This document shows positions 1 to 62,633 of a stretch of DNA of 64,000 nt, piece after piece. The stretch is from assembly GCA_030390025.1 (NCBI GenBank), contig CM059431.1, positions 125,428,001-125,492,000 of the forward strand, written 5' to 3'. Source of the stretch: Squalus acanthias. Lineage: Eukaryota. The notes beneath the pieces were generated by a model, which was not told the origin of the DNA, ran no database searches, and worked only from the letters and a program-made list of their open reading frames with translations. Made by a program: the position numbers and the translations under genes. Every line of letters begins with the position of its first letter. Within the stretch, counting starts at the first letter, position 1.

Positions 1-1299
1 GTCCTGGTGGCGTTGCACGAGGGATCTGGGACCAATTTGTAATCCTGGTGCGGCGGTGCTGCTTCCCCGAGCATCTGTGTGTGAGGCTGTGAAGCTCGCA
101 ATGCATTGTCGACAGTGAGGCACACTGAAATTTAAAGGGACCATGCACATTGAAGCAAGACAAAATAAAATGCACTGATTCAATACATTTTTCAGCCCTT
201 TCTGTCTTTTTACAAATATTCAATATTTAAAAGAAGTTCCAAATGTGATTATTCATCTCTTAAAGCTGAATTACCTTCCTAAACTAAACAAATTGGAAGA
301 CTGCCTCAGCACTAACAAGAATGGCTCAGCAAGCCAGGGAAGAGGCACCCAGGGTCTCGCACGCAGCACTCCAGCTTTGTGCAGGGTGTCAACACTGCAA
401 GACTGGCCCTCTACCCACAGGGGCTGGGAGGCCCTCCAGAAAAAACAATGTGGGAGTACATCACCGAGGCCATCACTGCCAGCAGTGTCACCCCCACCAC
501 CTGGCTCCAATCCCCATAGAAGCTTCATGACCTCAGACCACTGGTCAAGGTTAGTGAATGCATCTTCAAAAGCTGTCACCTACCAACTACACCACGAGCC
601 TCACACACTGCTCAATGCAGGACGCCCAATCACTCACCTACCAACAATCTGCACCAATGACGAGACACATCTACCATTCATAGCATCACCTCACCCCCTT
701 GGAGGAAACGGTGCAGGCCATTCTTGGCAGGTGCATGGCTGAGCCCTTGGCCAACGGCAGGGCTGAAAGGATACAAGATGCGGGTATCCTTGTCGTTATC
801 TGGCATGTACCATAGTTTTCCTGCCTTCCCATCAGCACAACTCTACCCTTGTGCCTTCCTCATTTCACATACCCAAGAAATGCAGCCTGCCCAGCCAGTG
901 GGTCAACAAGAAGAGGTCACCTGCCCAGCCAGTGAGGCCGCAGGCGGATGATTCATTCCCGGATATCCCGGCCACGAAGGGGCTGTCTAGGATGCATCCT
1001 TCTGTTTGATTCCTCCTCTTCTGCGTCTTGCTCTTCTGCGTCTTCCTCTTCCCTCTGCAAGCAGATTCTGTAAATGTGAAATGACAGCATAAGATGCTGC
1101 AAATACTCAGTTGGTCAGGCAGCAAGTCAACCTGACACGTGAACTCCATGGAGGTAGCGTGACCTGCTGAGTATTCACAGCATGTTCTGTCTTCTCAAAG
1201 GCATTCACTTACCACCCAAGCCCTTGCAAGCATCCAGCAGCACTCCCAAAACACTTAGAAAAACTTTTCACAAATATTGCAGCAAGCCACCACTTCAAT

Positions 1300-23119: not shown

Positions 23120-24716
23120 TGTAAGGGATACTCTCCTGACCCTGCGTGTCTCGTGGCCTGTGAGGTTCACGCGGCTCTGTGCAGCCTGTATGTCAGTGCG
23201 GGTCTAGGCCTGGTCTCCAGCCAGTCTGGGAACACTAGACACCCCTGTGAGTGGTTCGAATCACTCTCCCTTACGGTTCTAGACACTGGACTTAGATGCG
23301 AGAGCAGTAATGGAGATAAAAACTCATGTAGACTTGGTTTGAACGGTACGAAATGGAAAATCTTTATTGCATGATACTTAAAATTATGAAATACATGTCA
23401 TATGCACAGATTAATGACAGTACAATCTTACAAACAGTTATAATCACTCTTAGGGAAACGAGGAACGACCAGCACAACGTAAATAGGGCACACATTACAA
23501 ATATCCTTAAACTTTAAACCCTCCCCTATCAATAACTATCCTAAAACTAGCTTCGTAGGATCCCGAGACTCATGCTCACCACTCGTAATAACTCGGAGAA
23601 AATCCCGAATAGCTGATCGGATGTTTTTCACCGCAGCACCCACGTGTTGGTCAGGAGATCTCCTGGTCCCACTTGTTTACTGCTTCTGCTGCTCGGTCAG
23701 TCGGCTGGACCGTCCGCTGTAGTGAAGACCTCTGTTGGTTGGATACAGGGTATGGTGGAGCACCGTTGTCAATATCGCTGATACGATGTGTTTGCACAGT
23801 CCAGTTATCATCGATGCAATATGTCTTGTTAAAGAAGAAAACTTCCTGTCGAGAAGACTTGGCTGATCGACCTACAGGCGCGGTCGGGATTTACTGACCG
23901 TGGCGATGGATAAGGTCTTCTTCTCTTCTCCTCTCATCTCATCTCATCTCATCCCGGGCCTTCGGTTCCGCTGCCAGCTACCAACATAGGTCTTTGCAAC
24001 AGTCTTTTACCCAGGAGCAGCCACGATGATAACAGCAGCAAGCGGCAAGAGTCAAGAGCAAAAGAGCAAGAGTCACGAACACGAGGCAAGAGAGCGAATG
24101 GACGGTTTGGGCCTGCAATTATAGTGCACAGTTCTTCCGTTTCCCGCCCAACTACAATGTCCATTCTTTTGTTTAAGGTTTGGCGCCCAAAAATGTCCTG
24201 TATGGGTGATCTCTGTCCTTAATGGGTTTCGGGGCTACTCCTGAATGTTTGAGTACCTGTTAATATTTCTCCCATTGTCAAATCGGTCGGTGTTCCCCCT
24301 GGAGGGGTTTGGGGCTTCCAAGTGTCCTGTATAACTACCTGCTAACGGCTCTCTCATCGTAGAGCCGTTGGGAGTTTACATATTAATGTCCTTTGGATGG
24401 GCCCTTGATGGCTTTCCTTTGTACCTGGGAGACCGATCCCAGTATCGATGTTTATACTGTAAACCCATAATGTCCTGTGTATTGTCTTCACTGTGCTGAA
24501 TCGTTATCGATCCTGCAAAAAAATGTTTATTGGAACGCCATCTTGTCTGCCTGCCGAAAAGTCTCGAATGTTCTGTCACGCGGTGCGGCGGCCATTTTAC
24601 AGGCTGCTTGTGTCCAATTTAAACCTGACAGCATTCCGCTGAAATAAAAGCTGTTTTGAACGAAACTTGTGTTTTCTCCTTATAAAAATGAAATCGCGAT
24701 AATTGCGAATTCTACA
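23120..24716 (-). repeat. 3' LTR (1597 bp)
   Basis: Appears identical to 34095-36131 apart from the SINE. AATAAA on minus at 23363-23368. (GAGAT)n microsatellite near 23930. Confidence 0.95.
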
Positions 24717-25140: not shown

Positions 25141-27492
25141 TTACACTGCGCTCTCATCGTGCACGCGCACGTAACGTTCTCGCCACTCTCCCGTGTTCTC
25201 ATGCTTGGTGAGGCGCTTGTCTCTTTTACAATGTATGAACAAAAGGTATACTACAATAAACACTTGACAGACGACTAAAATGTGGGAGGCTATTCTGACC
25301 CATGAGGGCACTTCAATATTCGTGAACAGATTCCACCACGGTGGAACCACTATGTCCAAAATGTCTGTACCTATCTCGACGGTTTTCTGTTCTAATGTAT
25401 AGAAATGCTTTTGTGACACCGCGACGGCTTTCAGAAGTTTGGTTAAATGCTCGGGGAGAGGGGGAATGAGGTACCCAAAATGTGCGACAAATCGCTGCAA
25501 GTCGGTAAAATTCTCTTTTACTGTGAGATGAACAGTGGATGGTTCAGGGATTGGGATAATTCGCTGTTGTGCTACTTGAACTTCAGCCCTGGGTTTAAAA
25601 CAGAAACTGCTGTCACTCACCGGACACCGGCTACGGTTTCCATGCTGGTAGTGTTGCGCTGCAGTGGTAACACAATATGTTCCACCCCCGATGTATGCTA
25701 CCTGCGGAGGCACATGATCTTGTGCCATTGCCTCCATGGTGCAATTCATGGACTTGGCGTCAGCCGTTCTGAACCCGCACTGTGGTGTTAAAAAGGCATT
25801 CAAGTGCTGGGGGCACAGTATTATGTGTGCTCCCCTGCCACGACAACCAGAGAGATCTGTACCTGTCATCGTTTGCTCCCAGCGGATGACGTAAGGTGGA
25901 ACCGCTGCATAACGAATGTGGGCTCCCCCCTGAATGACACCAATGTTCTCTACCCGATATACCGGGGCGGGCTTTGCTGTGTTGCCCAAAACCGGCATGC
26001 GTAATACTATTCCCATAATAGTATGGTTTGAACGTCCGCAGTCCACGGGGACTGGGTAAGCTTCTGAAGCTAGCCTGAGCTGGCACGGACTTAATGCATT
26101 CTGAAAAGGGTGGAGCGCCCGCAGGTGTTTGTTACTTATCCAGGACGGGACCAAACCTTGTTTTAAATCCTCCAAATTACTGCGGCCCTCGCCCAGTAAC
26201 CACGCCCCGTAAAGCACGCACACCTCGTTCTGCGCAGCTTGATCGGATGCATTCCGATCTTCCCTAATCAGGGCATTTACCGTACGCGCATGTTTCTCCA
26301 GCTCTGCTATAATCTCTTTTAAATGTAGTGTCATGGCTTGGTCCTCGTGCAGACCCGACCCTACCACTTTATTCTCATCTGTAAGAATATCCTTTAACTG
26401 TGTTTTTAAACCATTAATCTGGGTCTGCAGCTCCACACTGTCTAGAGCGTTGACCACAGATGTCCCTGTGTTAAAAGCAGTGAACGCATCGTTCACCAAA
26501 CCCCTTCTTTGCCTCCCTACTTGGTCCAAAACTTCCTGCGGTGCGGTGTATAAACTTGTCTTATCGATTTCTGCAAAATCAAACTCGTAAAATTGCCTGA
26601 ACATCTTGGTCAACAGGACCTGGTACAACTGTTCCGTCTTTTTGGGGCACCACTCTGGTAACCGTACCTCAGTGAGATTTAAAATCACCGAGGCCACCGC
26701 GTAATGTACCCCCTGAAATAGTATCTGGTCTGTGGGGACCAGTACCAAACCGTTCCCGGGTCCCTTACTAGTTTTAGGGCACCCTTCTTCCTCAGTTAGA
26801 ACTACCGGAATCGTGGGCGGGGCTTTGCGTGGGCGCGTAATGAGCTCAGTGGCATTTACTGGGATCGGAGAGTATGGGGCTCCGCACCCCCTGGTGCTCG
26901 CATCCCACCTCATCCCCTGTCCGTTATCCTGCCACTGGTTAATAAAGAATATGGAGATGCCTTTGGGGCAAACGTACTTTGACCCCCACATACAAACATA
27001 AATCCCCTCATCTGGTTCCCACCATTTGTCCCAACAGACTTTCACTTGTCCATCTGTCCCCGTAATTGTCCGATGGGTATTATTACCCAGTCGCTCCCAC
27101 TCAACCGAAGAGTTCCTCATAGTTTTGCTCAGCTTTCGCAGCCACCACCATCGGCTCAATGGGACATTCCCACTGCAGGTCAAACAAATCCGTTTGCCGA
27201 CGGTGACGCTGATCCTGGGTGCGATAATCCGTACTTTGGGGCACATTAAAGAAGTCTCTCTGTAGGCGAACCCCGATGTGCTGGAATACTCCGTTGAGTT
27301 CGTTCCCAGCCATCCTGGCCACCTTCCCTTGTGGAAGTAGGTGCTGGTCCCTTCTGCCTTCCGTCTTCCGGTCCCATCCACCGCGATGGGGGCCGTGTCC
27401 CCGGAACATCCAAACACCACGACATCCTTGGTGAGGCCCCGATAGGCCAATCCACATCCGATTGCCACGAGCAAAACTAGAAGTCGTTCCAT
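25141..27492 (-). CDS. env: Envelope glycoprotein, 783 aa, intact: signal peptide, Ig-like domain, F-like class I fusogen, TM
   Basis: Hydrophobic N-terminus, furin site RQRR/GLV (aa 327-330), heptad repeats, Cys-rich region, TM (ILVVCQVFIVVYLLFI), several NxS/T sequons. Candidate splice acceptor TCTATCTGATCACAG|G lies 13 nt upstream of the ATG. Confidence 0.9.
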   Translation of the reverse strand: MERLLVLLVAIGCGLAYRGLTKDVVVFGCSGDTAPIAVDGTGRRKAEGTSTYFHKGRWPGWLGTNSTEYSSTSGFAYRETSLMCPKVRIIAPRISVTVGKRICLTCSGNVPLSRWWWLRKLSKTMRNSSVEWERLGNNTHRTITGTDGQVKVCWDKWWEPDEGIYVCMWGSKYVCPKGISIFFINQWQDNGQGMRWDASTRGCGAPYSPIPVNATELITRPRKAPPTIPVVLTEEEGCPKTSKGPGNGLVLVPTDQILFQGVHYAVASVILNLTEVRLPEWCPKKTEQLYQVLLTKMFRQFYEFDFAEIDKTSLYTAPQEVLDQVGRQRRGLVNDAFTAFNTGTSVVNALDSVELQTQINGLKTQLKDILTDENKVVGSGLHEDQAMTLHLKEIIAELEKHARTVNALIREDRNASDQAAQNEVCVLYGAWLLGEGRSNLEDLKQGLVPSWISNKHLRALHPFQNALSPCQLRLASEAYPVPVDCGRSNHTIMGIVLRMPVLGNTAKPAPVYRVENIGVIQGGAHIRYAAVPPYVIRWEQTMTGTDLSGCRGRGAHIILCPQHLNAFLTPQCGFRTADAKSMNCTMEAMAQDHVPPQVAYIGGGTYCVTTAAQHYQHGNRSRCPVSDSSFCFKPRAEVQVAQQRIIPIPEPSTVHLTVKENFTDLQRFVAHFGYLIPPLPEHLTKLLKAVAVSQKHFYTLEQKTVEIGTDILDIVVPPWWNLFTNIEVPSWVRIASHILVVCQVFIVVYLLFIHCKRDKRLTKHENTGEWRERYVRVHDESAV

Positions 27493-27775: not shown

Positions 27776-30700
27776 TTAAATCCTGAGAAGGCTGCTGCGA
27801 GCTCTTCCCGACGGTGGGAGGGCACTGACCCTTCCCTCTGATCTGCCGCAGCCTGTTGCTGCGCTGACCCTTTCCTCTGATCTGCCGCAGCCTGTTACTG
27901 CTTCGATGTGGCCTGTCTCTACCCGGGTTATCTTAACCTGAAACTTACGCCCTGGGGCAGCCTGTGGACCTGACCACGTCTTCCTGGGCTGGGGTACTCT
28001 GCTTGACCTACGGGGAATTGCTATGGGCGGGGGCTCCGTGACGGACGGACCGGGTCCCGAGACCTTCAACGGGATGACCTGGGGTTCCATCACAGGCGCC
28101 AGCCCCGCCTCCGCTGACTCCGCCTCCCTAACCTCGGGGCTGGCAGTTCGGGGCCCCGCCCTGCTCGGCCCAGCAGGCGGCCCTTCACTCGCGAACTCTG
28201 CCTCCCCTGAGGACTGGACGTTCAGAGCGGGCGGCCACACCTCTGGGAACCACATAGCGGCTGGCCCGGCCTCCTCTAGCTCCTTCCTCCTGCTGTCGGG
28301 ACCTGCAGCTTGTGTGTCCACCCCGTATGGATCTCTACCTAGCGGCCCCAATCCTTCCAGACCGTTCCTCTGAAACCACCCGTCATCATCACTATGCTCA
28401 TCTGCACTATCCTCATCTGACCAGGGTACCCTGGGGTCCTCGTCATCTAACCCCCAACTCCAGAAAAACGCTGCATGATCGTCCGGGATGTCCCTTCCCC
28501 TGATGCAAGCTGCTACGCCTGCCTGTGTGCCTTGTGGTCCTACCTGGGGCTGTGTTTTCCCATTGGCGGGATTTACCCCTGTAGTTTTCCCTTGCGCACC
28601 CGGCTGGTACAGTTTACATTGGTTTATGTGGAACCACTTAGTGCGCCGAGGTACTTTTACGGCGTAAACCATGGGACTCGCCTTGTCTACAATGTTGTAG
28701 GGTCCCATATACAGTGGTTCCAGACTCCCTACTCTGGCGTAGTTTCTGACCATGACCTGGTCTCCTACTTCCCACTCCCGCGTTTTGCGGGGTTCCAGCA
28801 ACAAGCGATTGCCCTGGTGCTGCCTTCCCATGTTCCCAGCCGCCTGCTCATAAACTTGCTTCAGGCGCTCCAAGAGAGTTTGGGCGAACTTGTCCCTGCT
28901 GATCTCTTGAAGCTGACCCTCAGTGAGCACCGGGGCTAGCACATGGGTGGGGGTTCGCATGAGCCTGCCGGTCATTACCTCGTGCGGGGAGTACCCCGTA
29001 CTTTTTGACTGACTGGCCCGGACCCCCATGAGGACTAAAGGCAGAACTTCCGCCCATTTTTGGGGCGAGTTCCTAGTCTCTTTCCTCAATTTCTCCTTCA
29101 GGGTCCGGTTCATACGTTCAACAATCCCGGATGACTTGGGATTGTGTGCTACGTGCCACTTCCCTTCAATGCCCAAAAGCATGAGGGTGTTCTGCATCAC
29201 CTGGCCGGTGAAATGACTCCCTTGGTCTGACTCCACGAAACGGGGGAGTCCCCACCGCGAGAACACTTCCCGGACCAAGATTTTTGCTGTACCCAGTGCC
29301 GTAGCTGTTCGACAAGGGAAGGCTTCCACCCACTTGGAAAACACATCCACCAGGACGAGGCAGTACTTATAACCTCCCTGGGTGGTGGGCAGGGGTCCTA
29401 TATAGTCGATCTGTATCGACTGCCATGGTCCCTCTACCCTTCTTACGTGTCCCATGGGCACCTTCCTTTTCTGGGGGTCTGGGTTGTTTGCAGCGCACAC
29501 AAGACAGTTTGCACAGAACTCGCGGACTTGTTCCCTGAGCCCTGGCCACCATCCCGCTTGCTCTACCCGTTGCCAGGTAACCTCGGGCCCGGGGTGCCCT
29601 GCCCCTGGTCCCTCGTGAGCCAACTGGAGGAATTCCCTCCTGTGCTGCTGCGGCACAACCCACTGCTCCTCGCGGAACAGCATGCCTTCCTTAACTGAGA
29701 GGGTTGCCGTACTGTACGGACCTTCTACCTGCCTCCCCTCAGCAATCGTTTTTAGGACTGCTTTTAGGGCGGGATCCTGGGCTTGGACGGTCTTAAGGTC
29801 TAGGGGCAATGCTACCCTGGTGTTCCCGGTATTCCCGTCCCCACCTCGGACCGCTGCTATGGGTCCGGTTCTATAGGGGTTCCAGAAAGTACCGTCGCGG
29901 GCACCCTCCCTGGCTAGCGCATCCGCCTGCCGGTTGCCCTCCCCACGGGGCTCTGTGGAGGAGTGAGCTTTCACCTTATGGATGAAAATCTCCCCTTCCT
30001 CCCCTACTGCTGCTGCTAAGATCTTCTCCAGCAAGGGCTTTACCGTTAAAGGTCGCCCGTCCGCGGAGGTGTATCCACGGCGGGACCAAATGGCCAGGTA
30101 TTCCGTACACGAATTGCAGGTGAACATACTGTCCGAGCAAATCGTGTATGGGGTTGGGAAAATGTCTGGGTGGGTTACCACGTACACCACGGCAGACAGC
30201 TCAGCCTGCTGCGCGCTCATGGTGCTAGGGAGCTTGATCGCCAGGGCAAGGTCTGCCGCAGGGTCATAAACTCCACACCCTGTGAGTCGCTCGCCAGCAG
30301 ATACTGTGCTAGACCCATCAACATAAATCTCGCGCCCAGTGGGATGTATCCCGGCCCGTAAACCTATGTTGACGTCCCACACCCCCTCCACCGAACACCG
30401 GTGGGCTGTACCGGGGTATACCAAATTGGCCGCAAGCCTGGGCTCGCAAAGACCTTTTACTCTGATGTCCAACTGGGAGAGAAGAAGGGTCCAACGCGCA
30501 ATGCGTGCGCTGCTTACGGTCCCGTCTTTAATCCTCCCATCCAGAAGCATCTTAGTTGGTGTGTGATGTGTGAGGAGAGTGATGGGAGAGAGCCCTGTGA
30601 AGATCGCTGATCTTTTCACAGCCCAATGCGTGGCTAAAAGGTGCCTTTCGCAATTGGAAAAACTTCTCTCCACATCCGTTAATACCCTGGATGAATAGAC

Positions 30701-32278
30701 AACCGGCCTCAGCTTGCCGTGACGCTCTTGGAGCAGCACGGCGCTTAAGCTGTCTCCGCTGGCAGCTACCTCCAGGAAAAACTCCTTCCCCCCATCTATG
30801 GCCCCTAAGGCTGGCGCGGTCTGCAGATCCCTTTTTAACTTCTCGAAGGCTGCTTGGCAGCCCTCGTCCCAAAGCCACTCTACTCCCTTATGGAGGAGTC
30901 GGAGGAGCGGTGCCGCTGTGGCCGCATAATCCTCGATAAAATCCCTGCAGTAACCGGTCAGTCCCAAGAAGGACCTCACACCCCTTACGTTGTTGGGAAT
31001 CGGTAATTCTTGCACCGACTCCCTCCTTGCTTTGTCTATGGCTCTTTCCCCAGCGCGTAGGGTCAGTCCCAGGAATTTTACTTCCTGCTGACCGATACGT
31101 GCTTTCTTTGGGTTTACTTTAAAACCCTTTCTCGCTAACAGCTCCAATAACTCGTCCAGCAGTGGTCCGTGCTCCTCCCTTGAGTCCGTAAATAGGAGCA
31201 AATCATCCACATACTGTACTATCTGATTGGGCTGACTAAACTCCTTTAAACTTCCTGCCATACACTGGTGAAAAATACTGGGGCTATTGTGGAAACCTTG
31301 TGGCAAGCAGTTCCACGTGTACTGTTGCCCTTTAAACGTAAAGGCAAACTTGTACTGGTCCTCTCGCCGCAGCGGGATGGACCAAAAACCGTTCGAGATA
31401 TCCAGCACCGTGAACGTGGTCGCGGACGCTGGGATGCTCCCTATTAGGTCAGCAACTGCTGCTACTGTGGGCGCGCAGGCGGGGATGTTACTGTTAAGGA
31501 CTCTGTAGTCCACCGTGGCTCTCCACGAATTATCCGGCTTCCTAACCGGCCATAATGGGGAGTTCACGTGTGTGGCTATCGGCCTCAACACGCCCTGCTG
31601 CACCAAGGAAGACATTGCTGCCTCCATATCGGGTTCTGCTTCTTTGGGGAAGTTATACTGCTTTTGGGGTCGGGTCATGGGGTCCCCATCTACGCTGACC
31701 TCAAACCCGACCACCCTCCCACAATCGTGCTTGTGGGTTGCAAACGCGTGCATATTATCTGTCACGTACGTTTGCATGTCCGTTGGGACATCTGCGACCA
31801 TAAGCCTGAGGTCGTAGCCTCCGGATGGCTGTACGGTACACAGGACCCCTGTTTCTTCCTCCCCTTGAATTACCATTACCTCGCCTTTTTCCCCTTTAGC
31901 CCCCCAGAGACAGTGATTTCTGAGGTCCACGAGGATCCCGTGTCCCGCTAGCAGATCGGACCCGAGAATACCTCTTCCACCCCCCTTTTGCCATGCCATC
32001 AGTATACACTTCCACTTAAGGCGAAGTGTCCCTAAACGAATGGATAGCGGGAGGGAAAACGTGCCAGCCTGTTCTTTCCCTGTGAACCCTGCTAGCGTGA
32101 ATGGGACCTTGGTAGATAGCGGCGAGTCAAAAGGGTCATCTGTATGGATTATGGTGCAAGAAGCTCCCGTGTCCAACAAATAACTGCCCTTTTGTTTCTC
32201 TACCTCCATCTCCACCACAGGTCACCTCCACGCATCATAGCTGAGCGGACACAGGTAGACGGGCTGTGCTGGTTCTAG
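27776..32278 (-). CDS. pol: Pol (PR-RT-degenerate RH-RNase H-IN plus long C-terminal tail), in frame with gag. One extra TGA at 32222-32224; open from 32218
   Basis: LLDTGAS; LPQGF, YVDDLL; IYVDGSS/SAQQAEL/CSDS/GNRQAD; HHCC zinc motif; IDYIG, ESDQG, VERMNRTLK; GPY. Confidence 0.93.
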
Positions 32279-34090
32279 TCATGGGGCACTATTAGACGGT
32301 CCTGCGGCACCTACGGGGCCGGTTGCGACCGCCACCTGTCCACGCGCATTCAAAACCATCTTGCGCATGACTCCTAACACTGCCTCGAGGTCTTCGGGAG
32401 AGGTGGGTGCCTTTGCTTCCTTAGCCGGGACAGGCGCCTGGGCTCGGACCGCGGGATTTTTATCCTTGGAATCCTTCCAAGGGTTCCTGCAGTGCTTGCG
32501 CCAGTGCCCTGTCTTCCCACACCCGTAACAGGCATTACTTGCCTGTGGGGCGCGATTACCCTCCTGATGCCACTCTCTTTGAGCCGGGGCTGCGGGTCGT
32601 ACCTCATGTACTCTTCCCTTAAAGGGACGTGTTGCCATACCCCTTATGTTACGGTAACCTAACGTGAGTCGATTCAAGACCGACTCTTCCGTAAGGTTGA
32701 GGTCATTGGGATCGAACCAGGCTTTTGCCTGCTCTCTAACGGCTGGTAAACTGTTGGCTATTATGCACCTAAGCCAATGAATTAAAGCGGCGCCTTCCAC
32801 ATCTTCGCGCTCGGGCGCACCTAGACAGCTGCGCTCATATACTGGCCACAGCCTGTCGGCAAAAACCTTCGGGGGTTCTCCCTCCATCTGCACTGTCTGT
32901 CCCACTCTAGCAAACGGACCTCCGTCGTTCGCTCCCACTACTTCTAGGACCTCATTTTTCAATTCCTCATAACTTTTATTACCCCTCTTGCTATCGCCTG
33001 AGAGACACTGAAGGACCGAGCTATCTAATGAGAACAGCAGCATTTTTGCTGTCTCCCCATCATCGCAGCCGTTGATGGCTGCGGCTTGCTCAACTTCCCT
33101 AAAATGTACGGAAGGGTCGTCTATCTCGGTCAGCTTCCTTACGTGGTTTATCATAGCCCTCAGCTGATGTGAACTGTGAGGCAACACCAGCTGTCCGAGG
33201 AGATCCCCCGGTTCTTCCCCACCGTTTCTGCTTGGGCCCCTTTTAATCCCCGTTACTGGATACAACGATCCCTTTTCTACCTCCTTTTCAACGGGCTCTT
33301 TTGTTTCTTCCGTTGCTTCCTCCCTAACCCAGGTTTCTGAATAGCTGGGTGGCGCGGAGGGCGCAGTGGCTACTACCTCTTCTGCTTTACTTGGTGGGGA
33401 ATTTCTAAATCTCTCATTTACTAGCGGCTGGCGTGCCGACGGATTAATAAGGCACACCATGCCGTTCGCATTATTCACGGCCTTTTTGAGGCTCTCTATC
33501 TCTTTTTCGCAGGCGCTATGGTCGGCTCCCTGAAACTTATCCTCAAGGGCCAACTTATACGCCGACCTAACCCCCATTAAGCTCTCTTCTTGAGTTCTTA
33601 TCTGGGCAGCTTGACGGTTACATCTTTCCTTCATCCTACTCTCGTTTAATTTTGCTTCAGTGATCTGGCACTCGAGATACTCTACCCTTGTTTTAAGGTA
33701 ACTGGAGACTTCCTGGCTTTCCTGGCGTAACTCATTTAAACTCTTAATGAGCGCCTCCCCTCCAGAAACCTTCTCCTCCATTTCCTCCTCTAACTGCTTG
33801 ATTCGAGCGGTTAGCGCTGTATTGGTCTGGTTTGAAATCTGAACCTGCCTTTTGTAGCACATAAGCCAGACTGCTTTCTCAACTGCCTTTTTATGCTCCT
33901 TACTATCCGTCCACCTTTCAGCTGCCTCTAGTGGGCTCTTATCCGCTAACAGTTCGCTTATCCACTTTTTCGTTAGATTAACCTTTCCAAATACGTAATC
34001 CGCTATCTTTTCCTGCATCACATTTCGTACAGTCATTCCAAAATCTAACACACTACCCTCTCGCTGCCAGTGTCCTGCCGCGGTCGCCAT
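32279..34090 (-). CDS. gag: Gag, 603 aa: coiled-coil N-terminal half, late motif, capsid-like region, one CCHC zinc knuckle
   Basis: CYGCGKTGHWRKHC knuckle, PSAPPSY motif, position between PBS and pol. Close paralog at 56635-58443. Confidence 0.9.
   Translation of the reverse strand: MATAAGHWQREGSVLDFGMTVRNVMQEKIADYVFGKVNLTKKWISELLADKSPLEAAERWTDSKEHKKAVEKAVWLMCYKRQVQISNQTNTALTARIKQLEEEMEEKVSGGEALIKSLNELRQESQEVSSYLKTRVEYLECQITEAKLNESRMKERCNRQAAQIRTQEESLMGVRSAYKLALEDKFQGADHSACEKEIESLKKAVNNANGMVCLINPSARQPLVNERFRNSPPSKAEEVVATAPSAPPSYSETWVREEATEETKEPVEKEVEKGSLYPVTGIKRGPSRNGGEEPGDLLGQLVLPHSSHQLRAMINHVRKLTEIDDPSVHFREVEQAAAINGCDDGETAKMLLFSLDSSVLQCLSGDSKRGNKSYEELKNEVLEVVGANDGGPFARVGQTVQMEGEPPKVFADRLWPVYERSCLGAPEREDVEGAALIHWLRCIIANSLPAVREQAKAWFDPNDLNLTEESVLNRLTLGYRNIRGMATRPFKGRVHEVRPAAPAQREWHQEGNRAPQASNACYGCGKTGHWRKHCRNPWKDSKDKNPAVRAQAPVPAKEAKAPTSPEDLEAVLGVMRKMVLNARGQVAVATGPVGAAGPSNSAP
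34072..34089 (-). other. Primer-binding site, tRNA-Arg(TCG)
   Basis: TGGCGACCGCGGCAGGAC is complementary to the 3' 18 nt of vertebrate tRNA-Arg-TCG (…GTCCTGCCGCGGTCG-CCA, recalled from memory). It starts 5 nt after the LTR end. Confidence 0.85.
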
Positions 34091-34094
34091 TTTC

Positions 34095-36131
34095 TGTAAG
34101 GGATACTCTCCTGACCCTGCGTGTCTCGTGGCCTGTGAGGTTCACGCGGCTCTGTGCAGCCTGTATGTCAGTGCGGGTCTAGGCCTGGTCTCCAGCCAGT
34201 CTGGGAACACTAGACACCCCTGTGAGTGGTTCGAATCACTCTCCCTTACGGTTCTAGACACTGGACTTAGATGCGAGAGCAGTAATGGAGATAAAAACTC
34301 ATGTAGACTTGGTTTGAACGGTACGAAATGGAAAATCTTTATTGCATGATACTTAAAATTATGAAATACATGTCATATGCACAGATTAATGACAGTACAA
34401 TCTTACAAACAGTTATAATCACTCTTAGGGAAACGAGGAACGACCAGCACAACGTAAATAGGGCACACATTACAAATATCCTTAAACTTTAAACCCTCCC
34501 CTATCAATAACTATCCTAAAACTAGCTTCGTAGGATCCCGAGACTCATGCTCACCACTCGTAATAACTCGGAGAAAATCCCGAATAGCTGATCGGATGTT
34601 TTTCACCGCAGCACCCACGTGTTGGTCAGGAGATCTCCTGGTCCCACTTGTTTACTGCTTCTGCTGCTCGGTCAGTCGGCTGGACCGTCCGCTGTAGTGA
34701 AGACCTCTGTTGGTTGGATACAGGGTATGGTGGAGCACCGTTGTCAATATCGCTGATACGATGTGTTTGCACAGTCCAGTTATCATCGATGCAATATGTC
34801 TTGTTAAAGAAGAAAACTTCCTGTCGAGAAGACTTGGCTGATCGACCTACAGGCGCGGTCGGGATTTACTGACCGTGGCGATGGATAAGGTCTTCTTCTC
34901 TTCTCCTCTCATCTCATCTCATCTCATCCCGGGCCTTCGGTTCCGCTGCCAGCTACCAACATAGGTCTTTGCAACAGTCTTTTACCCAGGAGCAGCCACG
35001 ATGATAACAGCAGCAAGCGGCAAGAGTCAAGAGCAAAAGAGCAAGAGTCACGAACACGAGGCAAGAGAGCGAATGGACGGTTTGGGCCTGCAATTATAGT
35101 GCACAGTTCTTCCGTTTCCCGCCCAACTACAATGTCCATTCTTTTGTTTAAGGTTTGGCGCCCAAAAATGTCCTGTATGGGTGATCTCTGTCCTTAATGG
35201 GTTTCGGGGCTACTCCTGAATGTTTGAGTACCTGTTAATATTTCTCCCATTGTCAAATCGGTCGGTGTTCCCCCTGGAGGGGTTTGGGGCTTCCAAGTGT
35301 CCTGTATAACTACCTGCTAACGGCTCTCTCATCGTAGAGCCGTTGGGAGTTTACATATTAATGTCCTTTGGATGGGCCCTTGATGGCTTTCCTTTGTACC
35401 TGGGAGACCGATCCCAGTATCGATGTTTATACTGTAAACCCATAATGTCACGGTGGCATAGTGGTTAGCACTGGTGCTTCACAGCGCCAGGGACCCGGGT
35501 TCGAATCTGGACTCGGGCGACTGTCTGTGTGGAGTTTGCACATTCTCCCCGTGTCTGCGTGGGTTTCCTCCGGGTGCTCCGGTTTCCTCCCACAGTCCAA
35601 AAATGTGCGGGTTAGGTTGATTTGGCTATGATAAATTGACCCTTAGTGTTAGGGGGGGATTAAATATGTGGGGTTACGGGGATAGGATGGGATATGTTAG
35701 GGGGAATTAAATACGTGGGGTTACGGGGATAGGGTGGGATATGTGTTGGTGCAGGCTCGATGGGGATTCTGTGTGAGAAAAGCAGGGACAGGGTACTGCA
35801 TTTGGATGATCAGCCATGATCGTATTGAATGGTGGAGCAGGCTCGACGGGCCGAATGGCCTACTCCTGCTCCTAGTTTCTATGTTTCTATGTTTCTATGT
35901 CTTCACTGTGCTGAATCGTTATCGATCCTGCAAAAAAATGTTTATTGGAACGCCATCTTGTCTGCCTGCCGAAAAGTCTCGAATGTTCTGTCACGCGGTG
36001 CGGCGGCCATTTTACAGGCTGCTTGTGTCCAATTTAAACCTGACAGCATTCCGCTGAAATAAAAGCTGTTTTGAACGAAACTTGTGTTTTCTCCTTATAA
36101 AAATGAAATCGCGATAATTGCGAATTCTACA
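34095..36131 (-). repeat. 5' LTR (2037 bp including an inserted SINE)
   Basis: Same sequence as the 3' LTR on both sides of 35450-35900. Confidence 0.95.
35450..35900 (+). mobile_element. tRNA-derived V-SINE (HE1-like) with CR1-derived tail
   Basis: A box TGGCATAGTGG, B box GGTTCGAATC, V-domain TGTGTGGAGTTTGCACATTCTCCCCGTGTCTGCGTGGGTTTCCTCCGGG, CR1 3' UTR and (ATGTTTCT)n tail. Confidence 0.9.
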
Positions 36132-52961: not shown

Positions 52962-53895
52962 AAACATAAGAACATAAGAAATAGGAGCAGGAGTGGCCAT
53001 TTGACCCTTCGAGCCTGCTCCGCCATTCAATAAGATCATAGGTCATCTTCTACCTCAACTCCACCTTCTCGCACTATCCCCTTATCCCTTAATTCCCTTA
53101 GTTCCCAAAAATTTATTGACCTCTATCTTGAATATACTCAACGACTGAGCATCCACAGCTCTCTGGGTGAGAATTCCAAAGATTCAGAACGCTTTGAGTG
53201 AAGAAGTTTCTCCTCATCGCAGTCCTAAATGGCCGACCCATTATTCTGAGACTGTGACACCGTGTTCTAGATTCCCCAGCTGGGGAAACATTTTCTCTGC
53301 ATTAACCCTGTCAAGCCCCTTAAGAATGTTATATGTTTCAATTATATCACCTTTCATTCTTATAAACTCTAGGGAATATAGGCCTAGTCTACTCAATCTC
53401 TCCTCATAGGGCAATCCCCTCATTCCAGGAACCAGTCCAGTGAACCTTTGTTGCACTCCCTCTAAGGCAAGTATGCCTTTCCTTAGGTAAGGAGACCAGA
53501 ACTGTAAACAGTACCCCAGGTATGACCTCACCAATGCCCTGTATAATTGTAGTAAGACTTCTTTACTCTTATACTCTAATCCCTTTGTAACAAAAGCTAA
53601 CATACCATTTGCTTTCTTAATTGCTTGCTGTTCCTGCATGTTAACTTTCTGTGATTCATGTACAAGGACACCCAGGTCCCTCTGAATGCAAACATTTCCC
53701 AGTCTCTCACCATTCAAAAAATATTCTGCTTTTTTGTTTTTCCTACCAAAGTGGATAACTTCACACTTCCCCACACTGTATTCCATTTGCCATGTTCTTG
53801 CCCACTCAGTCAACCTGCCTATAACTCTCTGCAGCCTCTTTGCGTGCTCCTCACAGCTTACTTTTGCACCTAACTTTGTATCATCAGCAAACTGG
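52962..53895 (-). mobile_element. 5'-truncated CR1 LINE
   Basis: QFADDTKL, WARTWQMEYSVGKCEVIHFG, LYRALVR. Tail at 52962-52980. Confidence 0.9.
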
Positions 53896-54349
53896 TAAGG
53901 ACAGCAGTTTCCTTCCCTGAGAACATTCATGATCCATTAGGGTGTATACGACAATCCAGCACCTTCATGGTCTATTTTACTGATACCAGCAGTTTTTTTC
54001 CAAGTTTTTTTTAAACTGAATTCAAATTCTCAAACTGCTCTGGTGCAATTTGAGCTCACCACCTCTGGATTATTAGTTCAACCCTCTGAATTGATAGTCT
54101 AGTAACATCACTGCTATACCACCATTCCCTTCTTAAATCTGAATAAGTGTAAATATTTCACATTGGAAGAAAGAAGGATGATGTGTAGCTAAGGATAAAA
54201 TTGAAGGAAATCAGAAGATGCTGATAGACGGGACGATTAACATGGGCAGTCACAGTGGAGCAAGAATCAATCAAAAAAACTACAGAATCATGTTGCTAAG
54301 TAAGAGGATGCCATACAAGACTGTACAATGCACTGGTTAAACGCCTTTA

Positions 54350-54945: not shown

Positions 54946-56630
54946 TGTAGAATTCGCAATATATCGCGATTTTATAAATAAGGAGAAAACACAGAGTCTC
55001 GTTCAAACAGCTTTTATTTCAGCAGAATGCTGCCAGGTTGTTCAAAGTGGACACAAGCAGCCTGTAAAATGGCCGCCGCACCTCGTGACAGAACATTCTA
55101 GACTTTTCGACAGGCAGACAAGATGGCGTTCCAATAAACATTTGTGCAAGATCGATTAAGATTCAGCACAGTGAAGATAATACACGAGACATTATGGGTT
55201 TGCAGTATACACATAAATACTGAAATCGGTCTCCCAGGTACGAATGAAAGCTATTGTACCGAGTAATCAAGGGCCCATCCAAAAGACATTAATATGTAAA
55301 ATCCCAACGACTCTACGATGAGAGAGCCGTTAGCAGGTAGTTATACAAAACACTTGAAGCCCCAAAAACCCCTCCAGGGAGAACACCGACCGATTTAACA
55401 ATGGGAGAAATATTAACAGGTACTCAGACATTTACGAGTAGCCCCGAAACCCATTAAGAACGGAGATCACCCATACAAGACATTTGAGCGCCAGACCCTA
55501 ACAAAAGAAAGGACATTAAGGTTGGGCGGGAAACGGAAGATTTTGCACTATAATTGCAGGCTCCAAACCGTCCATCTCTCTCTTATCCTCGTGGCTGCTC
55601 CTGTGCTCTTATTCTCTTATCCGATCGACTCGTAACCTCGTGGCTGCTCCTGTGTTTTGACTCGTAGTCGGGTTCCTGCTTGCCTGGTGCCTCTTTGAAA
55701 AAGACTGTTGAACTTTCTGATCCGTTCGGATCTACCTCGTGTCGCGTAACGAAGACCTATGTTGGTAACTGGCAGCGGAACCAAAGGCCCGAGATGAGAT
55801 GAGATGAGATGAGATGAGATGAGATGAGATGAGAAGAGAGGAAGACCATACTCATCGCCACGGTCAGTAAATCCCGACCGCGCCTGTAGGTCGAATAGCC
55901 AAGTTTTCCTTGCCAGGGAGACTTCTTCGAACTTGCAAGAACGGTTCATCATCGATGATATTGACTAATCTGTGAACCCGGCTCGGAAAAGTACCTGTTA
56001 AACCAACCAACACAGGTCTTCATCACAGCAGACGGTCCAGCCTGCTAGCCGGAGCATAAGCAAGTAAACAAGTGGGACCAGGAGATCTCCTGACCGACAC
56101 GTGGGTGCTGCGGTGAAAAACATCCGATCAGCTATTCGGAATTTCTCCGAGTTATCACGAGTGGTGAGCATGAGTCTCGAAATCCTACGAATCTAGTTAG
56201 GACAGATATTGATAGGGGAGGGTTTAAGTATTAAGGATACTTGTAATGTGTGCCCCTATTTACGGTGTGTCGTTCGTTCCTCGTTTCCCCAGGATCAGCT
56301 ATATAACTGCTTGTAAGATTGTACTGTCATTAATCTGTGCTTATGACATGTATTTCATAATCTTAAATATCATGCAATAAAGATTTTCCATTTCGTACCA
56401 TTCAACCGAGTCTACATGAGTTTCATCTCCATTACTGCTCTCGCATCTAAGTCCAGTGTCTAGAACCGTAAGGGCGAGTGATTCGAACCACTCACAGGTG
56501 TGTCTAGTGCTCCCAGACTGGCTGGAGACCAGAACAGGCAACAAGGCCTAAACCCGCACTGACACACAGGCTGCACAGAGCCGCGTGAATCTCACAGGCT
56601 GCGAGACACGCAGGGTCAGAATCCCTTACA
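54946..56630 (+). repeat. 5' LTR of provirus 2 (1685 bp)
   Basis: Conserved termini. AATAAA at 56376-56381. TATA-like candidates at 55549 and ~56300. (GAGAT)n at 55791-55830. Confidence 0.93.
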
Positions 56631-56634
56631 GAAA

Positions 56635-58443
56635 ATGGCGACCGCGGCAGGACACTGGCAGCGAGAGGGTAGTGTGTTAGACTTTGGAATGACTGTACGA
56701 AATGTTATGCAGGAAAAGATAGCAGATTATGTGTTCGGAAAGGTTAATCTAACTAAGAAATGGATAAGTGAATTGTTAGCGGATAAAAGCCCGCTAGAGG
56801 CAGCCGAAAGGTGGACAGATAGTAAAGAACATAGAAAGACACTCGAGAAAGCAGTCTGGCTTATGTGTTACAAAAGGCAGGTTCAGATTTCAAACCAGAC
56901 CATTACAGCGCTAGTAGCTCGAATCAGTCATTTAGAGGGAGAAATGGATGAGAAGGTTTCTGGAGGGGAAGTGCTCATTAAGAATTTAAGTGAGTTGCAC
57001 CAAGAAAGCCAGGAAATCTCCAGTCACCTTAAAACAAGGATAGATTATCTCGAGTGCCAGGTCACTGAGGCAAAGTTAAATGAGAGCAGGTTAAAGGAAA
57101 GATGTGGCCGCCAAGCTGCCCAGATAAGAACTCAGGAAGAGAGCTTAACGGGGGTTAGGGCGGCATATAAGTTGGCCCTTGAGGATAAGTTTGAGGGAGC
57201 CGACCATAGCGCCTGCCAAAGGGAGATAGAGAACCTCAAGAAGGCCGTAAACAAAGCGAACGGCATGGTGTGCCTTATCAGTCCGTCAGCACACCAGCCG
57301 TTAGTAGGTGAGAAGTTTAAGAAATCCCCACCAAGTAAAGCAGAGGAAGTAGTAGCCACTGCGCCCTCCGCGCCACCCAGCTATTCGGAAACCTGGGTAA
57401 GGGAGGAAGCAATGGAAGAAACGAAAGAGCCCATTGAGAAAGAAGTGGGAAAGGGACCATTGTATCCAGTAACGGGTATTAAAAGGGGCCCAAACAGAAA
57501 CGGTGGGGAAGAACCAGGGGATCTCCTCGGACAGCTTGTGTTGCCTCACAGCTCACACCAGCTGAGAGCTATGATAAATCACGTACGGAAGCTGACCGAG
57601 TCAGACGACCCTTCCGTACATTTCAGAGAAGTTGAGCAAGCCGCAGCCATTAACGGCTGCGATGATGGGGAGACAGCAAAAATGCTGCTGTTCTCATTAG
57701 ACAGCTCGGTCCTTCAGTGTCTCTCGGGCGAGAGCAAGAGGGGAACCAAGACTTATGAGGAATTAAAGAATGAGGTCCTGGAAGTGTTGGGGGCGAACGA
57801 TGAAGGTCCGTTTGCTAGAGTGGGACAGACAGTGCAGATGGAGGGAGAACCCCCAAAGGTTTTTGCCGACAGGCTGTGGCCAGTATATGAGCGCAGCTGT
57901 CTAGGTGCGCCCGAGCGCGAAGATGTGGAAGGCGCCGCTTTAACTCATTGGCTTAGGTGCATAATAGCCAACAGTTTACCAGCCGTCAGAGAGCAGGCAA
58001 AAGCATGGTTTGATCCCAATGACCCCAACATTACGGAAGAGTCGGTCTTGAATCGACTCACGTTAGGATATCGCAATATAAGGGGTATGGCAACACGTCC
58101 CCTTAAGGGAAGAGTACATGAGGTACGACCCGCAGCCCCGTATCAAAGAGAGTGGCATCAGGAGGGTAATCGCGCCCCACAGGCAAGTAATGCTTGTTAC
58201 GGGTGTGGGAAGACAGGGCACTGGCGCAAGCATTGCAGGAACCCTTGGAAAGATTCCAAGGATAAAAATCCCGCGGTCCGAGCCCAGGCGCCTGTCCCGG
58301 CTAGGGAAGCTAATGCACCCACCCCTCCCGACGACATCGAAGTAGTGTTAGGAGCCATGCGCAATCTCTTGAGTGCACGTGGACAGGTGGCGGTCGCAAT
58401 CGGCCCCGTAGGTGCCGCAGGACCGTCTAATAGTACCCCATGA
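56635..58443 (+). CDS. gag: Gag, 602 aa, intact
   Basis: Colinear with 32279-34090. Has PSAPPSY and the CCHC knuckle, and ends TGA-CTAG. Confidence 0.9.
   Translation: MATAAGHWQREGSVLDFGMTVRNVMQEKIADYVFGKVNLTKKWISELLADKSPLEAAERWTDSKEHRKTLEKAVWLMCYKRQVQISNQTITALVARISHLEGEMDEKVSGGEVLIKNLSELHQESQEISSHLKTRIDYLECQVTEAKLNESRLKERCGRQAAQIRTQEESLTGVRAAYKLALEDKFEGADHSACQREIENLKKAVNKANGMVCLISPSAHQPLVGEKFKKSPPSKAEEVVATAPSAPPSYSETWVREEAMEETKEPIEKEVGKGPLYPVTGIKRGPNRNGGEEPGDLLGQLVLPHSSHQLRAMINHVRKLTESDDPSVHFREVEQAAAINGCDDGETAKMLLFSLDSSVLQCLSGESKRGTKTYEELKNEVLEVLGANDEGPFARVGQTVQMEGEPPKVFADRLWPVYERSCLGAPEREDVEGAALTHWLRCIIANSLPAVREQAKAWFDPNDPNITEESVLNRLTLGYRNIRGMATRPLKGRVHEVRPAAPYQREWHQEGNRAPQASNACYGCGKTGHWRKHCRNPWKDSKDKNPAVRAQAPVPAREANAPTPPDDIEVVLGAMRNLLSARGQVAVAIGPVGAAGPSNSTP
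56636..56653 (+). other. Primer-binding site, tRNA-Arg(TCG)
   Basis: TGGCGACCGCGGCAGGAC, identical to the PBS of provirus 1. Confidence 0.85.
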
Positions 58444-61400
58444 CTAGAACCCGCGCAGCCCGTCTACCTGTGTCCGCTTAGCTATGATGCGTGGAAGCGA
58501 CCTTTGGTGGAGATGGAGGTAGAGAAACAGAGGGGTAGTTATTTGTTGGACACGGGAGCTTCTTGCACCATAATCCATACAGATAGCCCTTTTGACTCGC
58601 CGCTATCCACCAGGGTCCCATTCACGTTAGCGAGTTTCACAGGAAAAGAACAGGCTGGCACGTTCTCCCTTCCGCTATCCATTCGTTTAGGAGCACTTCA
58701 CCTTAAGTGGAAGTGTATACTGATGGAATGGCAGGAGGGGGGTGGAAGAGGTATTCTCGGGTCTGATCTTCTATCGGGACACGGGATCCTCGTGGACCTC
58801 AGAAATCACTGTCTCTGGGGGGCTAAGGGTGAAAAAGGCGAGGTAATAGTGATTCCGGGGGAGGAAGAAACAGGGGTCCTGTGTACCGTACAGCCATCCG
58901 GAGGCTACGACCTCAGGCTTATGGTCGCAGATGTCCCAACGGACATGCAAACGTACGTGTCAGATAATATGCACGCGTTTGCAACCCACAAGCACGATTG
59001 TGGGAGGGTTGTCGGGTTTGAGGTCAGCGTAGATGGGGACCCCATGACCCGACCCCAAAAGCAGTATAACTTCCCCAAAGAAGCAGAACCTGATATGGAG
59101 ACAGCAATGTCCTCCTTGGTGCAGCAGGGCGTGTTGAGGCCGATAGCCACACACGTGAACTCCCCATTATGGCCGGTTAGGAAGCCGGATAATTCGTGGA
59201 GAGCCACGGTGGACTACAGAGTCCTTAACAGTAACATTCCCGCCTGCGCGCCCACGGTAGCAGCAGTTGCTGACCTAATAGGGAGCATTCCAGCGTCCGC
59301 GACCACGTTCACGGTGCTGGATATCTCGAACGGTTTTTGGTCCATCCCGCTGCGGCGAGAGGACCAGTACAAGTTTGCCTTTACTTTCAAAGGACAACAG
59401 TACACATGGAACTGTCTGCCACAGGGTTTCCACAATAGCCCCAGTATTTTCCATCAGTGTATGGCAGGAAGTTTAAAGGAGTTTAGTCAGCCCAATCAGT
59501 TAGTGCAGTATGTGGATGATTTGCTCCTATTTACGGACTCAAGGGAGGAGCATGGACCACTGCTGGACGAGTTATTGGAGCTGCTAGCGAGAAAGGGTTT
59601 TAAAATAAATCCTAAGAAAGCACGTATCGGTCAGCGGGAAGTAAAATTCCTGGGACTGACCATACGCGCTGGGGAAAGAGCCATAGACAAAGCAAGGAGG
59701 GAGTCGGTGCAAGAATTACCGATTCCCAACAACGTAAGTGGTGTGAGGTCCTTCTTGGGACTGACCGGTTACTGCAGGGATTTTATCGAAGACTATGCGG
59801 CCACAGCAGCGCCGCTCCTCCGACTCCTCCATAAGGGGGTGGAGTGGTCTTGGGACGAGGGCTGCCAAGCAGCCTTCGAGAAGTTAAAAAGGGATCTGCA
59901 GACCGCGCCAGCCTTAGGGGCCATAGATGGGGGGAAGGAGTTTTTCCTGGAGGTAGCTGCCAGCGGAGACAGCTTGAGCGCTGTGCTGCTCCAAGAGCGT
60001 CACGGCAAGCTGAGGCCGGTTGTCTATTCATCCAGGGTGTTAACGGATGTGGAGAGAAGTTTCTCCAATTGCGAAAGGCACCTTTTAGCCACGCATTGGG
60101 CTGTGAAAAGATCAGCGATCTTCACAGGGCTCTCTCCCATCACTCTCCTCACACATCACACACCAACTAAGATGCTTCTGGATGGGAGGATTAAAGATGG
60201 GACCGTAAGCAGCGTGCGCATTGCGCGCTGGACCCTTCTTCTCTCCCAGTTGGATCTTAGAGTAAAAGGTCTTTGCGAGCCCAGGCTTGCGGCCAATTTG
60301 GTATACCCCGGTACAGCCCACCGGTGTTCGGTGGAAGGGGTGTGGGACGTCAACATAGGTTTACGGGCCGGGATACATCCCACTGGGCGCGAGATTTATG
60401 TTGATGGGTCTAGCACAGTATCTGCTGGCGAACGACTCACGGGGTGTGGAGTTTATGACCCTGCGGCAAACCTTGCCCTGGCGATCAAGCTCTCCAGCAC
60501 CATGAGCGCGCAGCAGGCTGAGCTGTCTGCCGTGGTGTACGTTGTTACCCACCCAGACATTTTCCCAACCCCATACACGATTTGCTCGGACAGTATGTTC
60601 ACCTGCAATTCGTGTACGGAATACCTGGCCATTTGGTCCCGCCGTGGATACACCTCCGCGGACGGGCGACCTTTAACGGTGAAGCCCTTGCTGGAAAAGA
60701 TCCTAGCAGCAGCAGTAGGGGAGGAAGGGGAGATTTTCATCCATAAGGTGAAAGCTCACTCCTCCACAGAGCCCCGTGGGGAGGGCAACCAGCAGGCGGA
60801 TGCGCTAGCCAGGGAAGGTGCCCGCAACGGCATTTTCTGGGACCCCTATGGGACCAGACCCATAGCAGCGATCCGAGGCAGGGACGGGAATCCCGGGGAC
60901 ACCAGGGTAGCATTGCCCCTAGACCTTAAGACCGTCCAAGCCCAGGATCCCGCCCTAAAAGCAGTCCTAAAAACCATTGCTGAGGGGAGGCAGGTAGAAG
61001 GTCCGTACAGTACGGCAACCCTCTCAGTTAAGGAAGGCATGCTGTTCCGCGAGGAGCAGTGGGTTGTGCCGCAGCAGCACAGGAGGGAATTCCTCCAGTT
61101 GGCTCACGAGAGACCAGGGGCAGGGCACCCCGGGCCCGAGGTTACCTGGCAACGGGTAGAGCAAGCGGGATGGTGGCCAGGGCTCAGGGAACAAGTCCGC
61201 GAGTTCTGTGCAAACTGTCTTGTGTGCGCTGCAAACAACCCAGACCCCCAGAAAAGGAAGGTGCCCATGGGACACGTAAGAAGGGTAGAGGGACCATGGC
61301 AGTCGATACAGATCGACTATATAGGACCCCTGCCCACCACCCAGGGAGGCTATAAATATTGCCTCGTCTTGGTGGATGTGTTTTCCAAGTGGGTGGAAGC

Positions 61401-62409
61401 CTTCCCTTGTCGAACAGCTACGGCACTGGGTACAGCAAAAATCTTGGTCCGGGAAGTGTTCTCGCGGTGGGGACTTCCCCGTTTTGTGGAGTCAGACTAA
61501 GGGAGTCATTTCACCGGCCAGGTGATGCAGAACACCCTCATGCTTTTGGGCATTGAAGGGAAGTGGCACGTAGCACACAATCCCCAGTCATCCGGGATTG
61601 TTGAACGCATGAACCGGACCCTGAAGGAGAAATTGAGGAAAGAGACTAGGAACTCGCCCCAAAAATGGGCGGAAGTTCTGCCTTTAGTCCTCATGGGGGT
61701 CCGGGCCAGTCAGTCAAAAAGTACGGGGTACTCCCCGCACGAGGTGATGACTGGGAGGCTCATGCGAACCCCCACCCATGTGCTAGCGCCGGTGCTCACT
61801 GAGGGTCAGCTCCAAGAGATAAGCAGGGACAAGTTCGCCCAGACTCTCTTGGAGCGCCTGAAGCAGGTTTATGAGCAGGCGGCTGGGAACATGGGAAGGC
61901 AGCATCAGGGCAATCGCTTGTTGCTGGAACCCCGCAAAACGCGGGAGTGGGAAGTAGGAGACCAGGTCATGGTCAGAAACTACGCCAGAATAGGGAGTCT
62001 GGAACCACTGTATATGGGACCCTACAACATTGTAGACAAGGCGAGTCCCATGGTATACGCCGTAAAAGTACCTCGGCGCACTAAGTGGTTCCACGTAAAC
62101 CAATGCAAACTGTACAAGCCAGGTGCGCAAGGGAAAACTACAGGGGTAAATCCCGCCAGTGGGAAAGCACAGCCCCAGGTAGGACCACAAGGCACACAGG
62201 CAGGCAAAGCAGCTTGCATCAGGGGAGGGGACATCCTGGAAGATCATGAAGCGTTTTTCTGGAATTGGGAGTTAGATGAGGGAGAATTCAGGGAACTCGA
62301 GTCAGATGAGGATAGTGATGACGACGAGTGGTTTTGGAGGAACGGTCCCGTTTTCGATATGGGGAGAATACGGGCTGCAGATAGAGATCCACACAGGGTG
62401 GACACACAA
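58444..62409 (+). pseudogene. pol: Pol of provirus 2: nonsense TAA at 61498-61500 in the integrase core, and 3'-truncated
   Basis: In frame with gag. Reads ESD*GSHF where provirus 1 has ESDQGSHF. The frame continues as ORF 61522-62418. Confidence 0.92.
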
Positions 62410-62633
62410 TTCACTTAATTTATTATTGATAAAACATTAACATTGTGATCGGGCTGTTGGTAGTATGGAGGAGGGTACCTTTTAATGATACAGGCTCAGC
62501 ATCCAACACTGCAGCCACATGGCGAGCCGCTCGGCCCTAATTCTTGCAGGGTTTGTATTGTTTGTCTAAAGCTACTCTTCAGGTCATCCCCCTCTAATTC
62601 TACCTCACCCAGATTATTCTGCTTAAACACCTT

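Follow-up and report, generated by a model that had tools for sequence, protein, structure and literature searches.

Probable type II read-through of UGA-CUAG at the gag-pol junction of two endogenous retroviruses in Squalus acanthias

A stretch of 64,000 nucleotides from Squalus acanthias (GenBank assembly GCA_030390025.1, contig CM059431.1, positions 125,428,001 to 125,492,000 of the forward strand; hereafter the window) holds two related endogenous retroviruses (ERVs), provirus 1 and provirus 2, in which gag ends with UGA followed directly by CUAG and pol continues in the same frame. Judged from sequence, programmed type II read-through of this UGA-CUAG is very probably the route by which Pol is made, and is the best explanation we found. 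In provirus 2 the TGA closes a 602-codon gag open reading frame (ORF) that begins at ATG 56635, and the frame then runs on for 1018 codons through protease, reverse transcriptase (RT), tether, RNase H and integrase; in provirus 1 it closes a 603-codon Gag, a second in-frame stop follows 19 codons on (32224-32222), and 1481 open codons come after that. The original prediction had described TGA CTA G at the gag end of both proviruses, and in provirus 2 a gag frame running through a single in-frame UGA into protease, and both observations were confirmed (Table 1). The definition of a type II signal, UGA followed by CUA or CGG (PMC13517186), fits both junctions, and a long conserved ORF lies in frame 3' of the UGA. 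TGACTAG occurs four times on the two strands of the window, twice at gag-pol junctions, and CTAG makes up 13 of the 5781 4-mers of provirus 2. The proviruses are 92.4% identical over 6.7 kb and, because they are related, their junctions are not independent draws. Among the 40 of 431 variants listed for four sequencing runs from three organisms, whose contigs cover all 30 bins, none falls within 58441-58447, and one at 58439 is present in all four runs.

In the mechanism that we infer, unspliced genomic RNA would be translated from the gag AUG, most ribosomes would terminate at the UGA and release Gag, and a few percent would insert a near-cognate amino acid there (by analogy Arg, Cys or Trp), with CUAG weakening termination, to yield Gag-Pro-Pol. 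The proportion of Gag to Pol would thus be fixed by the motif, as it is by UAG read-through in murine leukemia virus (MLV), but by type II sequence context, and apparently no conserved structure next to the stop would be needed. By analogy, the mechanism would resemble read-through in alphaviruses and in OPRL1 and AQP4, and the role would resemble UAG suppression in MLV. UGA-CUAG had been put forward as a vertebrate read-through motif, and published measurements bear this out: it gave efficient read-through in four of seven human genes tested, with 1.5% for UGA-CUA alone, and the AQP4 read-through extension is reported to reach back to cartilaginous fishes (PMC4132726). UGA is described as being read mostly as Arg, Cys or Trp (PMC13517186).

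Both genes have been under constraint. Between the two proviruses, nonsynonymous (dN) and synonymous (dS) divergence in gag are 0.050 and 0.249 (dN/dS 0.20; 602 codons), and in pol 0.015 and 0.105 (dN/dS 0.15; 1228 codons). The proviruses diverged under purifying selection in gag and pol, and the stop they share therefore predates rounds of replication. Two Gag homologues were found among 7999 candidates, a skate protein 51% identical and a second protein 44% identical to the window Gag (P0110/P0111); both carry a zf-CCHC domain and end at the position aligned to the end of the provirus Gag. In the skate Gag cluster, the two further members compared also end at the aligned position, and the third is 334 aa long. 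Given this divergence under selection, and a Gag end shared with relatives only 44-51% identical, the UGA is part of the virus rather than a product of decay. The alternative is that Gag and Pol once formed a single frame, that a disabling change such as CpG decay created the UGA, and that defective copies spread it. Other nonsense stops are present in both proviruses, and of the published lokiretroviruses, from the sister group of Retroviridae, one consensus shows a sense codon where the stop would be and 10 of 24 are labelled with a single gag-pol gene. Against these observations stand the selection and the shared Gag end just described, as well as codon usage: CTA accounts for 17 of 177 Leu codons in the frame, yet it follows the stop in both proviruses and, in the lokiretroviruses, at nine of nine readable junctions, which are related and not independent. 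We regard decay as very improbable.

The stretch directly 3' of the UGA appears to behave as translated protein, which favours read-through. In its first 10 codons the proviruses differ by two synonymous changes and no replacement. The first Met of the pol frame is residue 24, whereas similarity to the coelacanth Pol relative P0005 already begins at residue 9 and the match to the RVP profile at residue 17. Translation started at that Met, 12 residues ahead of the catalytic Asp, would lose conserved protease sequence.

These details bear on a second alternative, in which Pol is made apart from Gag in the manner of foamy viruses and UGA-CUAG is an ordinary stop; Pol would then come from a spliced message or from ribosomes that re-initiate at the AUG 24 codons past the stop. 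This AUG, at 58513, has G at both -3 and +4, the closest Pol relative (P0001) is annotated from the same Met region, and the long terminal repeats (LTRs) are long (1.6 kb), which is a foamy-virus trait. The database starts, however, are placed at the first Met as an artefact of gene calling, the codons between the UGA and the internal Met are under protein-level constraint, and the Gag relatives have a CCHC knuckle, which foamy Gag is not known to have. From -300 to +120/+110 of the junction, neither provirus contains an acceptor-like site (11 of 14 pyrimidines plus YAG) or an XXXYYYZ slippery heptamer. No leader-to-pol joint is listed in the contigs of the four sequencing runs, although such contigs cannot exclude one. 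Separate expression of Pol is improbable in our judgement, and read-through remains the preferred account.

The read-through signal is counted here as sequence context, with distal structure unproven. The original prediction had proposed that a weak downstream stem, CCGCGCA/TGCGTGG, may assist, and this part did not hold. The stem is in the minimum-energy fold of 175 nt of provirus 2 and absent from the 100- and 147-nt folds, provirus 1 differs at two of the seven bases of its 5' arm, breaking both pairs, and we rejected the stem as not conserved. The first 100 nt past the stop fold no better than shuffled sequences (z -0.22 and -0.08), the bases from +7 to +15 pair with different partners in the two proviruses, and folding and comparison of the two sequences found no extended 3' stem-loop of the alphavirus kind close to the stop. 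Farther downstream, a hairpin is predicted from +71 to +162 in both proviruses, with 32 pairs of probability above 0.4 in both, three of them kept through a one-sided change. Its distance from the UGA is probably too great for it to have an effect there.

This hairpin is the main attraction of a third alternative, in which the UGA is subject to special recoding, for instance by selenocysteine insertion, RNA editing or a long-range structure. The hairpin starts 71 nt away, shows no two-sided compensatory change, and has a z of -5.4 in provirus 1 but only -1.7 in provirus 2; no Rfam family, SECIS included, reached its gathering score anywhere in the window. Two other pol windows also fold as strongly in both proviruses, and we hold a special route to be highly unlikely. 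In the fold scan (33 windows of 160 nt, 25 shuffles each, both proviruses) these were the windows at +486 and +1126 (about 58930-59090 and 59570-59730), with z from -4.9 to -6.8 in both proviruses.

Comparison with known systems supports read-through of a UGA as the source of Pol and shifts what is unusual about it. The original prediction had called UGA an unusual retroviral choice, but the stop codon itself has precedents: UGA gag-pol junctions are reported for SSSV (UGAAGA), ZFERV (UGACGA) and RMEV (UGAAGU) (PMC13517186), and TGA for XtERV-S (PMC8278194). In all four, as here, UGA stands between in-frame gag and pro-pol and read-through is presumed; the contexts listed, for SSSV, ZFERV and RMEV, lack CUA, and the four belong to other clades. 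With UGA at gag-pol already known, what appears to be new, in the literature covered here, is the CUA(G) context. MoMLV and WDSV likewise make Gag-Pol by suppressing one in-frame stop past the zinc knuckle, although MoMLV uses UAG with an 8-nt spacer and a pseudoknot. In SnRV and the SnRV-like ERVs (CmiERV lineage I; frog and coelacanth elements), as here, a single in-frame stop stands between gag and pol.

The same stop and context, with a polymerase downstream in frame, are found at nsP3/nsP4 of alphaviruses (UGA-CUA) and in the triatovirus PSIV, and the vertebrate genes OPRL1, OPRK1, AQP4, MAPK10 and MDH1 have the same UGA-CUAG. In contrast to these type II systems, the signal here stands at a retroviral gag-pro junction, and no conserved stem-loop was found close to the stop. 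In a 2026 review (PMC13517186), type II read-through in animal viruses is given only for alpha-, colti- and triatoviruses, lokiretroviruses are unmentioned in the text available to us, and retroviral read-through is listed as verified only for gammaretroviral UAG with a pseudoknot. We found no report of a UGA-CUA context at a retroviral gag-pol junction in a search that left most of the subscription literature, including the original SnRV paper, outside; term searches of PMC9040795, PMC9447858, PMC4299795, PMC8672886, PMC11521997 and bioRxiv 2023.10.26.564294 returned no information on read-through. Papers on SnRV-like ERVs may already have noted the junction.

Some published lokiretroviruses also carry the motif where gag ends, and the finding is thus broader than the original prediction saw. 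Among the 24 consensus sequences in the supplement of PMC7947760, whose frames were read by eye and which are related to one another, four have TGA-CTA-G at this place (Ofa, Cne, Pyo and Sau) and three have TGA-CTA-A (Dcl, Lro and Bsp). For all but Bsp the junction is in frame with protease; for Bsp it is in frame with the conserved peptide that precedes protease. Tfu has TGN-CTA-A at the gag end and Pfl has CGA-CTA-A at the homologous site within one open frame, similar to the CGA sense variant of some alphaviruses. Besides these nine readable junctions there are four sequences that have no gag (Aro, Ape, Lch and Rca) and 11 others, nine of them labelled as a single gag-pol gene. The pol genes were published with arbitrary downstream TTG, CTG or ATG starts; readthrough, stop codon, frameshift and suppression are not mentioned in the main text of that paper, nor readthrough in its supplement, as far as these were available (PMC7947760). 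The proteins of the frog lokiretroviruses Xla, Xtr and Npa read F-F-R or F-L-G at about the point where Gag ends, reminiscent of a U-rich -1 frameshift site.

Several observations weigh against read-through at this junction. In the nearest named virus, SnRV, the junction is UAG-GGC (PMC13517186) rather than UGA-CUAG, and a text search of the supplement of PMC4422223, in which line breaks or decay could hide a match, found TGACTA only inside pol of the SnRV-like elephant-shark ERV (CmiERV-I). For Tca2, it has been reported that the gag-UGA-pol junction may not suffice alone for read-through (PMC2194720), and here the level may be low because no conserved stimulatory structure was found. The Gag relatives were compared as proteins, so that the stop codon and the bases after it were seen only in the two proviruses. 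Both proviruses are broken in pol: provirus 1 has its second stop, and provirus 2 has a stop within integrase and lacks its 3' part. The lokiretrovirus sequences are consensus builds, and CpG decay can turn CGA into TGA.

It is conceivable, though we consider it unlikely, that UGA-CUA read-through is an old Gag-Pol route common to lokiretroviruses and SnRV-like viruses, which would be the deepest retroviral lineages and which share an F-type Env, with switching between opal and CGA as in alphaviruses, and that it was later replaced by UAG-pseudoknot and frameshift signals. Against such a route speak the SnRV and CmiERV-I sequences, the annotation of several lokiretroviruses with a single frame, and the scope for convergence in a motif of 6 nt. 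If a retrovirus uses the host-type UGA-CUAG to balance Gag and Pol, then type II read-through, so far described for RNA viruses and vertebrate genes, would gain a third setting. UGA-CUA would also supply the missing expression mechanism for lokiretrovirus Pol, and the junction bears on how Pol was expressed in the earliest retroviruses.

The virus is probably a SnRV-like ERV with a paramyxovirus-F-like Env, and by its sequence it would not be a gamma-, epsilon- or lokiretrovirus. The named homologues of its Gag and Env point to a shark or ray as host. Its Pol is 44-47% identical to frog and coelacanth proteins named 'NYNRIN-like' and 33% identical to two lokiretrovirus-like proteins. In an RT tree of 67 rows (three of 70 were dropped as too short), with group labels taken partly from names and domains, SnRV not among the rows and only two loki-like rows, assigned by eye, the window RT is placed within Retroviridae (100/98), where it groups with the frog and coelacanth Pols (99/89) and is separate from the loki-like, foamy, class I and ERV-L/S-like rows. 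RT identity is 50-54% to members of the frog and coelacanth clade, at most 38% to gamma-like rows, 34% to the foamy row, and 30% and 35% to the loki-like rows. By hand count, 69 of 132 positions are identical to the SnRV RT given in the supplement of PMC7947760, about as many as for the frog and coelacanth clade, and the RNase H motif agrees. SnRV-like ERVs have been reported from elephant shark and coelacanth (PMC4422223; PMC4977317). A crude heptad scan of the window Gag gave one window, at residue 129. SnRV, we presume, has an Arg tRNA primer site and a Gag coiled coil.

Three other assignments were rejected. A lokiretrovirus would share the dual RNase H (tether plus a second RNase H, common to all retroviruses) and the F-like Env, but here the RT lies inside Retroviridae rather than in its sister group and Gag has a CCHC knuckle; none of three chondrichthyan genomes was positive for lokiretroviruses (PMC7947760). 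A gamma- or epsilonretrovirus, for which type III read-through (UAG followed by GGN and a pseudoknot) would be expected, was discarded on the stop, UGA rather than UAG, and on an RT outside that clade. Spumaretrovirinae, whose Gag is not known to have CCHC, were set aside on the presence of CCHC, a pol in the gag frame and the low RT identity to the foamy row; for this subfamily we also used the criterion of a Pol separate from Gag with its own start (PMC8278194).

The predicted structure of Env resembles paramyxovirus and pneumovirus F: in a Foldseek search of the PDB, the best match of the Env model (mean pLDDT 57) was hPIV3 F (E 5.5e-12). Env has no Pfam Fusion_gly match, and a sequence search of the PDB gave no match for it. 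At E 0.01 Pfam matched neither the window Gag nor Env, and at E 1 there were only sub-threshold matches. Env homologues occur in sharks and frogs, and an F-like Env has been presented as a lokiretrovirus feature (PMC7947760). Further matches are the models predicted for the Envs of WEHV1 and WDSV. Viral contigs contained no related loci with DNA context, and metagenome contigs only two weak, unrelated loci.

Table 1. Positions of the junctions and of the proviral features in the window
Feature	Position	Strand	Description
UGA-CUAG gag-pol junction, provirus 2 (copy 2)	58441..58447	+	type II read-through context
UGA-CUAG gag-pol junction, provirus 1 (copy 1)	32275..32281	-	same 7 nt as provirus 2
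Provirus 2, 5' LTR	54946..56630	+	1685 bp, TG...CA ends; matches LTRs of provirus 1
Putative primer-binding site, provirus 2	56636..56653	+	begins 5 nt past LTR end; overlaps gag ATG
Provirus 2 gag	56635..58443	+	602 aa; single CCHC knuckle 58195-58236; ends TGA
Provirus 2 pol, gag frame	58444..62418	+	protease (DTG 58549-58557), RT, tether, RNase H, integrase; premature stop 61498-61500
Originally proposed stem, +8..14 with +44..50	58451..58493	+	not kept in provirus 1
Long predicted hairpin, +71..+162	58514..58605	+	predicted in both proviruses
Provirus 1, 5' LTR	34095..36131	-	insertion ~35897-35450; otherwise 100% identical to 3' LTR (pieces 1355 + 235 bp)
Provirus 1 gag	32279..34090	-	603 aa, ends TGA
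Provirus 1 pol	27776..32278	-	second in-frame stop 32224-32222, then 1481 open codons
Provirus 1 env	25141..27492	-	783 aa; RQRR site at 327; C-terminal membrane helix
Provirus 1, 3' LTR	23120..24716	-	1597 bp; 4-bp target-site duplication ATCC flanks provirus

Provirus 1 is a recent insertion, since its LTRs are identical apart from the insertion and it is flanked by a 4-bp target-site duplication. Recent as it is, its 5' LTR carries a SINE-like (short interspersed element) insertion of about 440 bp, which we take to be a shark SINE of HE1/CR1 type, and its pol has an early stop. Its Pol also has a long acidic, proline-rich tail beyond integrase (27776-28310, minus strand), for which provirus 2 was compared over 62250-62418 (plus strand). 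Provirus 2 has no env and no 3' LTR after pol within the window, and its similarity to provirus 1 stops at 62409.

Directly after the LTR of both proviruses (provirus 2, 56631-56653, plus strand; provirus 1, 34094-34072, minus strand), the gag ATG overlaps a putative primer-binding site 5 nt past the LTR end, so that gag follows the LTR with no leader in between. The skate Gag relative begins at the same Met. The complement of the putative primer site matches the T-arm, acceptor and CCA end of two phage tRNA-like genes with no assigned anticodon, and ARAGORN gave no anticodon assignment for the tRNA-like match. Provisionally, we take the site to fit tRNA-Arg(UCG), which we also assume to be a near-cognate reader of UGA. 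The surroundings of the proviruses, judged from the text of their ORFs, are presumably decayed long interspersed elements (CR1- and RTE-like) and Harbinger-like repeats, at 1667-4448, 11174-11755, 19158-19817, 22700-23374, 36118-37323 and 52966-53936.

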